From contig CM119267.1 of assembly GCA_051294375.1 (NCBI GenBank), forward strand, positions 11,543,553 to 11,607,552: a stretch of 64,000 nt of DNA, in the 5' to 3' direction. Shown here piece by piece: positions 21,107-23,921 of this stretch. Both the position numbers and the translations under genes were made by a program. Position 1 is the first letter of the stretch. Each line of letters opens with the position of its first letter. The stretch is from Paraspadella gotoi (taxonomy: Eukaryota > Animalia > Chaetognatha). The notes under the pieces are model-generated. The model had not been told where the DNA came from, did not search any database, and was given only the letters and a program-made list of their open reading frames with translations.

Positions 21107-23921
21107 TCAAACCGAATTCATGTCGATCGTGGGAAATATTGGTTGATCGATTTTCTCATTGTCAAAGTACCACGTCTCCCGCGAATCCGTCACGACTTTC
21201 GATCGGACGGCGGTTGGCGATTCGCTCGAAGGGTCGCTGAGAAACGAATCGGGTTCGCTGCGGCAAGATGACGTGGGCTGAAGGAACTTAGCGGAGTGGC
21301 CCTCTTCTTTGGATTGCGGAAGAACTGTTTCGCCGTTATCGGTACTCGGGAGTAGCACGGACGATGTGGTGGCGACGGTAGGGAGTTGGCCTGAGGCGAA
21401 TCAGGGCCAGGCTCTCTCGTCAATATTTAGAAAACGTAAACCCTTTCTAATTTTAGCATAAGTATGACGGGCCTATAATTTTATTAGCACGATCTTAGCT
21501 ATACTACTCTCAACTAACTTCATACCTAGAACCCGAGCTAACTTTTCGTTGAGCGGTTTCCTGGTGTGGCGCCACTTAGCAAGCGCCTGATCCAGCGCTT
21601 CGACGTAGTCCGGATGGATTTGCCAGTATCCTCCCTTCCCTTGTATATTTTTCGAGCGTGGCACTTTGACGAAGGCGCTGTTCAAGGACAGATTGTGTCG
21701 GATGATGTTCTAGAAAGAGGTAAATGTGAAATAGGGTTTTTTAAAATGAATATTTGAGCAATATGAATAATAATTTATAAGTTTTATGGGGTTTTTTTTA
21801 TCAGCCTACATATAATTACTTAATACTTATATCGCCAACCTGCCAGTTCGTTCTGGTATTTTTGTAAAATGCATAGTTTTCTTTGATATACGCGTAAATC
21901 TCGGCAAGGCTGACGGCGCGCTTCTTCGACTTCATCGCCAAATAGATGAGGGAAGAGTAGCTGAAGGGCGGCTTCAACGAGTCGTCCGTCTTGAAGTCGA
22001 TGGGAGGATGCAGTGGCCCGATAGTTGCTGAATATTGAGTAGGGAGTTTCTAGAAATAAAACTTTCTGTGGCGCTTATTGCACGGCCAACGTCAGCTTTT
22101 CAAAAAAGCGATAGTTTTAAAGAAAACTGACACAATATGCAAATGAGGTTTAAAATGAGGTTCGTAGAAAATAGATATGATCCAATCCAATAGTCAACCA
22201 CCTGTCATCGGCAGAGGATGATTTTCTTGATCGATGGAATCGTTCTTGTCTCTCGTCGACTTCGCTCCCTCGTTCACTTCCATCCCGCTTTCCTCGTCAA
22301 CGACGACCATCTGAGGCTTATCGCTGCTCGTGAGAAGAAACGAGTTCTCTTCTAGCGATTGATGAGAGACAGGGACCGAGGCATCCTTGTTTGGAGACCT
22401 TAGCTGCTCAGTCGGTTGTTTATCTGAAATGAAAGATTTTGATAGTCAGGATATTAAAGAAGACAAATCGATCGATCAATCAATCGATTATTCGAACCGT
22501 CGCCGACGATTTCGAGCCCGTCGTCTAATTCGCCGCCTCCTTCCAATGATTCCACTTGATCCCGACGATCCTCTGTCAAGTTTATAGTCAATGGCCCCGT
22601 CGACGTCGTCAATGGCGGCTTTGGTGTCGTAAATATGGGCTTGATCGTCGCCGGCGACCCAATGCTGTAGACAATTTGCGTCGAACCTCGGCTTTTCGCC
22701 AATACCGACTGAGAAGGCGACGGGGCAGCGAGCGGCATCGTCGTCTTCATCGAAGGGAACCGCGGGATGGCAAAATCAGCCATGGCGCCGCCGACGACTG
22801 ACTTAAGCGCCGACGCTGGCGCCGCAACGGAGATGACGGGATTCGTTTGACTGGATGGCTCGGCCATCAAAGTTTTTCGCTGCCAGTTGGAGATCGCGAG
22901 GCTGCTTGGGACCTAAGTATTGGATAATTTATAATGGATAACTGGTTATTTTAAAAATTACAGCTCATTTATTTTCAAAAAATTGTAATCAATGTGTTTG
23001 TTACGTTTAACATTTTATTTTTTACATCAAACCCCAAATCGTTTCTTCAAATAATTAAAATTGTCAATCACCTCCGTACTGGCGTTGGTTGCCATCTTCT
23101 TGAAAAGAGTGTTGGCGCAATACATTTCAGCTGGTCGGCGGGCAGCGACGCTAAAGTCGGGAGCATTGCCAGAGTAGTTCCGTGGATGTTCTAGGGTGTA
23201 GCAATTTTTTGAATGTTCAGATTATATGTTTATTACTCTTTTGTAATTTTTTATTTCCTTAGGGTTAAAAGTAAAACAAAATTTCAATCTTTTTTTTGAA
23301 GAAAATATCCTTATGTTATGTACTATTATCGCACTTACTAGTCGGCGTGTTCGACGGATTCGTCCTGTTCTTTCGTCTCTCTTTCGCGCGACGATTTTTA
23401 AACCAATTTTTGATGGTGGATTCCGCGAGACCTAACTTCTTTTGAAGGCAGATTCGGGCCCAGACGTCGGGGAACGGATCGAGACGAAAGACAAACTCCA
23501 ATATCTCTAGCTGAGCGCTACCTATTGTCGGCCTGAAATTGAGAAAAAATATGCCATCTTAAAACCTTGTTTGATTGCAGATTTACACCTCATTTTACCT
23601 GATTCTCTTTGTGTTAGGGACGTTTCTAAGATCTATACGCTTTGTAGTAAAATTTTGAGCGAAAACCATGTTGAAGGGATCCTCTGTAGGCAGTGTCGGA
23701 ACTCCCACAATAGCATGGCTTTCTTTCCGTACTAAAGAATCTTCGTTCACGTACAGTAAATTCTGCTTGGACTGAGCGTCGAAACTGTAAGCACCAGGAT
23801 TAAAGACCGACGTTTTGGCTGCTGTTGAAGACCCCGAAGCCGTCCCCGAAGCCGCGGTCCATTGGAATACCGTGTGCGAGGGTTTCGACGTAGCTGCTGG
23901 CACAGTTGCTTTAAACTCCAT
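21107..23921 (-). CDS. Homeodomain plus forkhead (FoxJ1-like) dual DNA-binding-domain transcription factor, 8 coding exons, about 642 aa
   Basis: Hand-spliced exons: 23599-23921, 23339-23532, 23072-23190, 22498-22912, 22202-22423, 21840-22027, 21526-21709, 21107-21390. All introns are GT-AG with compatible phases (2,1,0,1,1,0,1). Total 1929 nt = 643 codons with no internal stop. The exon 6 acceptor (22027) was chosen to fit phase; an alternative AG near 22050 would need a different donor. Confidence 0.8.
21611..21974 (-). other. Forkhead (winged-helix) domain, FoxJ1-like
   Basis: [87 protein letters not shown]. The upstream IDFKT, the GKGGxW motif and the intron at WQ|N all resemble FoxJ1. 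Confidence 0.93.
23367..23612 (-). other. Homeobox, split by a 66-nt intron in codon 5
   Basis: [60 protein letters not shown] is exactly 60 aa, with R5, Q12, L13, L16, F20, P26, D27, R31, L34, L40, W48, F49, K50, N51, R53 and K55. Confidence 0.95.

Follow-up and report, generated by a model that had tools for sequence, protein, structure and literature searches.

Can a homeodomain and a forkhead domain be built into one natural transcription factor? Factors carrying these domains make up two main families of developmental regulators in animals, and they cooperate or antagonize one another in trans. A locus of the chaetognath Paraspadella gotoi raises this question. An earlier note on the 64,000-nucleotide stretch of DNA analyzed here (hereafter the window) proposed that one gene carries a homeodomain at 23612-23367 and a forkhead domain from 21974, about 1.4 kb apart. 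Our coordinates agree with these positions and put the gap between the domains at 1393 nt.

Structure and transcripts of the gene

The gene consists of eight minus-strand exons that join into a frame of 642 codons, which runs from an ATG at 23921 to a single terminal stop, the TGA at 21107 (Table 1). Its seven introns are all of the GT-AG type, have matching phases, and measure 66, 148, 159, 74, 174, 130, and 135 nt. GC content is 0.47-0.58 in the exons versus 0.23-0.39 in the introns, and the two other frames of the joined coding sequence hold 24 and 20 stops. Because the leader has no ATG and contains in-frame stops, the ATG at 23921 is the first usable start. The splice donors of the gene are mostly unlike GTRAGT.

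Exon 2 matches the Pfam homeodomain family PF00046 (E 7e-15). The forkhead family PF00250 is matched at positions 2-48 by exon 6 (E 7e-12) and at positions 49-85 by exon 7 (E 4e-12), and the two exons together cover positions 2-85 of 88. The linker between the domains is about 279 amino acids long, of which serine, threonine, and proline account for 31%. Judged by its composition, the tail encoded by exon 8 is likely an activation region. Pfam returned nothing above the curated cut-off for the remaining five exons, and no additional homeodomain or forkhead copy turned up when the window was searched in translation.

Table 1. Positions of the gene's parts and of predicted binding sites at its start (position 1 is the first letter of the window)
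Feature	Position	Strand	Content
TAATCC site	24068-24073	+	sequence match
TAATCC site	23951-23956	+	sequence match
RYAAAYA site	24047-24041	- (gene strand)	sequence match
RYAAAYA site	23993-23987	- (gene strand)	sequence match
RYAAAYA site	23989-23983	- (gene strand)	sequence match
5' leader	23922..24024	-	103 nt up to end of X9 contig; ATG absent, in-frame stops
Exon 1	23599..23921	-	start codon; N-terminus rich in S, T, and A; residues 1-4 of the homeodomain plus two bases of R5
Exon 2	23339..23532	-	homeodomain residues 5-60 and basic, NLS-like stretch
Exon 3	23072..23190	-	linker; X9 joints on both sides
Exon 4	22498..22912	-	S/T/P-rich linker with acidic patch at its end; Pfam match and homolog not found
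Exon 5	22202..22423	-	acidic linker; contains M389, M398, M423
Exon 6	21840..22027	-	N-terminal half of forkhead domain: helices 1 and 2, beginning of helix 3
Intron 6	21710..21839	-	phase 0, within helix 3 of forkhead domain
Exon 7	21526..21709	-	recognition helix of the forkhead domain; wings, with GKGG motif; wing 2 basic
Exon 8, coding part	21107..21390	-	S/P/acidic tail with aromatic residues, stop TGA
3' untranslated part	20981..21106	-	up to end of X9 contig

The stretch is contained in nine of 11 sequencing runs, and four of the 11 were compared with positions 20700-24420. Run X9, which comes from a separate study and is labeled RNA by guess, yielded one contig of 2158 nt that leads from 24024 to 20981 and lacks all seven predicted introns, with joints of the CT..AC form. 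Subtracting the introns from the genomic span gives exactly the length of this contig. Seven of the eight exon pieces are listed for it; the intervening 121 nt fit exon 3, both of whose joints are reported. X9 behaves as RNA because its share of the sampled words (0.62) is about the coding-exon share of the stretch and because its depth is zero in a bin that lies entirely inside intron 2. The four linker junctions that had been put forward for checking (23339/23190, 23072/22912, 22498/22423, and 22202/22027) are all present in the X9 contig, as are the other three, which bears out the proposal of a single gene that carries both domains in one frame.

No splice joints were seen in the DNA run X6 or in the other two runs compared, and their absence from X6 means that a retrocopy does not account for the spliced form in that sample. 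The sole coding difference between the window and X9 and X6 is a synonymous one, at position 21122. Runs X10 and X11, which are from other organisms, gave only matches of 18-38 nt that we take to be due to chance. Unrelated contigs from X9 as well as from X6 match positions 22132-22171, within intron 5, which likely represent a small dispersed repeat.

Contigs of this kind chain overlapping words, drop rare forms, and give no expression level, and with one RNA run a contig that spans both domains is no proof that one molecule holds both. Two neighboring genes with overlapping or read-through transcripts might therefore have been chained into one contig while their main products remain separate. 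Such an arrangement would suit the AATAAA sequences in introns 2 and 3 and the internal methionines upstream of the forkhead domain. However, between the two domains the spliced path has no stop codon, and only intron retention or an additional exon could yield a product with the homeodomain alone. The empty bin in intron 2 and the lack of loose exon ends among the rows listed likewise argue against separate genes, which we consider very improbable.

Two loci joined by mis-assembly of the genome would create the same appearance. The window is repeat-rich and has eight gaps, and the two X6 contigs over the domains have just 24 nt in common, which is under the 31-nt bridging rule. Yet no gap falls inside the gene, the separate study behind X9 splices straight across it, and eight DNA runs from two studies, five of them flagged as possible sources of this DNA, contain 0.83-1.00 of the words of the stretch, so that this explanation can be given almost no weight. 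We are highly confident that the locus is an intact spliced fusion gene whose main product carries both domains. A minor form with the forkhead domain only may also be made from an internal start.

Ancestry of the two domains

The earlier note called the forkhead domain FoxJ1-like. We compared the domain by eye with about 200 rows of Additional Table 4 of PMC4077281. Helix 3 retains the N, R, H, N, L, and S of the N-x-x-R-H-N-L-S recognition helix, and the domain contains GKGG followed by an aromatic residue and W, as well as the short motif AMK. In the table, GKGG-aromatic-W is confined to the FoxJ1 block, where the five full-length rows have it; AMK is present in four rows of that block and in no other row. 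GKGG as such appears in six rows, namely four named FoxJ1, Hydra fkh2 (also in the FoxJ1 block), and amphioxus FoxAB, in which L and not an aromatic residue follows. Against these likenesses, two features that all six FoxJ1-block rows share, the W of helix 2 and A(D/E)P(S/T)W, are missing from the domain. The second residue of its N-S-I-R-H helix is I in place of the S of FoxJ1, and this I is found in none of the approximately 200 rows.

Identities were counted by hand for 10 rows of the same table only, over 78 columns. Amphioxus and sea urchin FoxJ1 share 44 residues with the domain (56%), followed by Hydra fkh2 (42), yeast Fkh1 (41), human FoxK1, Ciona FoxK, and human FoxS1 (40 each), hemichordate FoxI (39), human FoxJ2 (38), and amphioxus FoxG (37). 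FoxJ1 is therefore best among the rows counted, but 56% is no higher than the 56% quoted between FoxJ1 and FoxJ2 (PMC3493443). Support for the FoxJ1-like label comes from the motifs only. FoxJ1 ancestry of the domain is, on these sequence features, probable.

FoxJ proteins feature an N-terminal motif of the SL..L.W type. It was not found in the fusion protein, but it is present in a standalone, intron-bearing Fox gene on a JGI metagenome contig (L001:636-959 and 2488-2562), which on account of the motif we take to be FoxJ2/3-like. The metagenome scan that supplied this gene, as at least one locus, showed no homeodomain alongside it in 5.9 kb. The intron of the standalone gene has the same position as intron 6 of the fusion. 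Because Fox clade II is defined by an intron inside the domain (PMC8918179), the forkhead domain of the fusion is marked as a member of this clade.

The gene might simply be the organism's own FoxJ1, which would still drive motile-cilia genes while the homeodomain restricts or broadens its set of targets. In planarians, ciliogenesis is under FoxJ1 control (PMC3493443). The motifs and the highest hand-counted identity are in keeping with such a role, and X9 and X6 yielded no further forkhead copy with at least 80% nucleotide identity. However, an ordinary, older FoxJ1 elsewhere in the genome could escape the 80% cut-off, and the two absent FoxJ1-row features and the missing N-terminal motif sit poorly with an orthodox FoxJ1. 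In addition, the cilia role can be absent in divergent foxJ1 paralogs: RNAi against one of four in planarians gave loss of gliding and of cilia, and the other three gave no gliding defect (PMC3493443). We regard its being the organism's FoxJ1 in this sense as unlikely.

The homeodomain retains R3, R5, L16, F20, P26, D27, R31, W48, F49, K50, N51, R53, A54, and K55; the lysine at position 50 that had been claimed for it is thus present. Residues I8, I32, and N47 are divergent. Modeled from its sequence alone, exon 2 forms three helices (pLDDT 87.5), and the model fits ALX4 and Aristaless with an rmsd of 0.7 Å over 54-56 columns. The best single-domain sequence matches in the PDB (CEH-37, ALX4, Aristaless, CRX, and OTX2) are of the paired type as well.

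Of the features that distinguish PRD-like homeodomains, P26 and D27 and the paired-type sequence and fold matches are present and E32 is absent. In PRD-like proteins the homeodomain is the only major conserved domain (PMC4901127), and here a forkhead domain is present in addition. In common with the PRD-like K50 homeodomains (Otx/Crx/CEH-37, Gsc, and Pitx), the domain has K50, P26-D27, and A54-K55. It differs from them in N47, I8, and I32, in an intron at codon 5, and in that no EH1 or OAR pattern was found in the fusion gene. An X-box pattern was not found there either. The SIX/SO class combines K50 with a SIX domain upstream and has S, T, or V where this homeodomain has R5; exon 1 matches no Pfam family, and the domain does not belong to this class.

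A phmmer search with exon 2 against 1.84 billion representatives produced 2001 matches. The best 150 of these are mostly multi-homeodomain proteins with at most 46% identity and include no ortholog; a single-homeodomain relative scoring below 54.6 bits would be missed among them. Identity is at most 27/60 to each of 200 domains extracted from the matches. K50 is present in 16 of the 200 and N47 in one of those 16, and K50 may have arisen separately in this homeodomain.

A tree was made from the query and the 90 closest of the 200 ungapped domains, which had been filtered from 583 domain hits. Built from a biased hit set with few columns, it leaves the homeodomain in an open fork that lies outside the paired-like clade, and the branch leading to it is long. 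One match (P0019) has an Otx-like K50 domain that shares 24/60 residues with the query without grouping with it, and fold alignments give 36% identity to OTX2 and 42% to Gsc. With identities this low and a position in an open fork, kinship of the homeodomain with Otx, Pitx, Gsc, or Bicoid finds no support. We infer that its ancestor was a fast-evolving paired-like homeobox gene.

Because the forkhead part keeps an intron at the ancestral position, the evidence points to a fusion at the DNA level. The retained intron also rules out a retrocopy origin of the forkhead part. Transposon origin likewise found no support, since the gene is flanked by microsatellites and short chance repeats only. We envisage that a paired-like homeobox gene and an intron-bearing Fox gene of clade II, probably a FoxJ1 copy, merged, and that the tail of one gene and the head of the other would have become the low-complexity linker.

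Relatives and comparable proteins

An ortholog of the fusion was not found by word-indexed protein searches, phmmer, the ESM Atlas, the metagenome scan, or the sequencing runs. The word-indexed searches, made with exons 4, 2, and 6 against longer proteins only, gave no match, which is weak evidence. Clusters returned by the ESM Atlas were generic ones of either homeodomains or forkhead domains. Searches of open-licence PubMed Central papers and bioRxiv brought up no account of a family that unites the two, in line with the earlier note, whose author knew of none.

The pair of domains is nonetheless not wholly unique. One of the 150 phmmer matches listed, GMS79285.1 of Pristionchus entomophagus (P0021), also has a forkhead domain and thus combines homeodomains with a forkhead domain in one predicted protein. 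This protein differs in being a 1455-aa partial model with three homeodomains and with ARID, TIR, and UBA domains, and it belongs to a one-member cluster. Its forkhead domain matches that of the query weakly, at 27.8 bits. The different layout and the weak forkhead match lead us to read it as an apparently unrelated, independent mosaic. The gene model of GMS79285.1 is either an odd real gene or a merged model.

Sixteen classes of animal homeodomains are recognized in PMC4901127, whose main text does not contain the word "forkhead." The PRD/Pax, POU, CUT, and ZF homeoproteins likewise combine, within a single chain, a homeodomain with another domain that binds specific DNA sequences (PMC4901127). 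In contrast to these proteins, the fusion has a forkhead domain as the partner, its homeodomain is N-terminal, its linker extends over about 279 residues, and it is known from one species. In its predicted mode of action it is akin to the dual-domain homeoproteins, but it belongs to none of their classes. Compared with the FoxJ1 subfamily, it shares GKGG-aromatic-W, AMK, an in-domain intron, and the best identity among the rows counted, and differs in possessing a homeodomain, in its domain identity of 56%, and in its helix-3 I for S.

The PAX3/7::FOXO1 oncogenic fusions are also chimeras of a homeobox gene and a Fox gene. In them the forkhead domain is cut, whereas in the natural fusion both domains are whole and the gene is present in several individuals. 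The oncogenic chimeras arise by somatic translocations and combine PAX DNA-binding domains with the FOXO1 transactivation domain (exons 2-3) (PMC12209299).

Pax genes are thought to descend from a paired-box gene that merged with a homeobox gene of the PRD-like kind (PMC4901127). Mergers thought to start homeobox classes, of which Pax is an example, are ancient, and the fusion offers a test case for the birth of a class. Its weight as such is limited to one species and one RNA run, with no ortholog found. The most far-reaching reading makes the gene the founder of a new homeobox class, conserved in its lineage, in which the ciliogenic regulator FoxJ1 and a K50 homeodomain would co-bind as one fused protein. 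This protein would sustain its own expression through the TAATCC and RYAAAYA sites at the start of its gene and would join patterning to cilia programs. We give this reading little credence.

Predicted binding sites and genomic surroundings

How might such a protein act on DNA? K50 makes contact with a guanine pair, and co-variation links base 4 to residues 47 and 54 (PMC3460184). The homeodomain likely prefers TAATCC, although this prediction is made uncertain by the N at position 47. Forkhead domains read RYAAAYA, GACGC, or both, and because residues away from the DNA decide between these (PMC12795473), the motif assigned to the forkhead domain is also a prediction.

On balance, we lean toward viewing the gene as a lineage-specific two-headed transcription factor that came from the DNA-level fusion of two genes. 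In such a protein, sites of the TAAT(C/N)C type would be recognized by the homeodomain and those of the RYAAAYA type by the forkhead domain. A long and probably disordered tether would impose no fixed spacing and would raise occupancy where both types of site share one enhancer or promoter. Transcriptional activation would fall to the acidic patches and the tail. A homeodomain-Fox pairing that is normally made in trans would in this way become hard-wired. PITX is a K50 protein. It forms composite motifs with FOXA/FOXD (PMC12119339), and this pairing in trans is an analogy for two-headed binding.

Deviations at notable sites in both domains (I8, I32, and N47 in the homeodomain; the helix-3 I in the forkhead domain) speak against the two-headed reading. 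Perhaps only one domain binds DNA, and the other is decaying or is a protein-contact or self-inhibiting module that bends back onto its neighbor in the chain. The FOXO1 forkhead domain, for example, binds the NKX2.1 homeodomain and removes NKX2.1 from a promoter (PMC8997990), and the linker here is long enough to allow the domains to meet. Both recognition helices also contain unusual residues. Even so, both domains are full length, the exon halves pass the Pfam cut-offs by themselves, the invariant base-contacting residues are kept in both, and the homeodomain model is regular. We find a division of labor of this kind quite unlikely.

The start region of the gene contains both types of site and is a candidate target of the two-headed factor. 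All matches to TAATCC and RYAAAYA around the 5' end fall within 123 bp, at 23951..24073. None of 1000 shuffles and none of 200 tiles reach the joint counts of two TAATCC and three RYAAAYA in positions 23922-24221, a cluster that had been noticed before it was tested (post hoc). Taken singly the motif counts are modest, with P values of 0.024 and 0.030 (1000 shuffles), and are reached by three and 15 of the 200 tiles. Elsewhere in the window, no region of 150, 200, or 300 bp attains the joint counts, and one region does so at 500 bp and one at 1000 bp. These matches are possible candidates for sites of self-regulation or of regulation from upstream, and they could also serve different K50 or Fox proteins.

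The start region thereby provides a ready test sequence, and the fusion as a whole can show how binding specificity responds to a long tether. It can also show whether a domain derived from FoxJ1 keeps or changes the cilia program.

The gene lies in a window that contains very few recognizable genes, many (CT)n, (AAT)n, and (ACG)n microsatellites, and eight N gaps. Pfam gave no match for 93 other hand-picked frames among the 869 of at least 40 aa in the window, and no Rfam or tRNA matches were found there. About 1.4 kb downstream of the fusion gene, at 18480-19580 and probably on the minus strand, lie three GC-richer exon-like blocks with AT-rich spacers. This possible neighboring gene gave no Pfam match, and two of its frames had no PDB match. 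Further along, positions 16222-17154 hold a nested tandem array with periods of 13, 28, 41, and 151 that is built on a ATGACATCATGC-type unit. An AT-rich element at 12330-12910 contains scattered telomere-like TAACCC words and an internal duplication. On the other side of the gene, blocks in 45700-55600 and 57100-63600 look duplicated, having similar translations (for example, 45708-46058 and 57224-57538, or 50700-51135 and 62068-62481), and they may represent a segmental duplication or two haplotypes.
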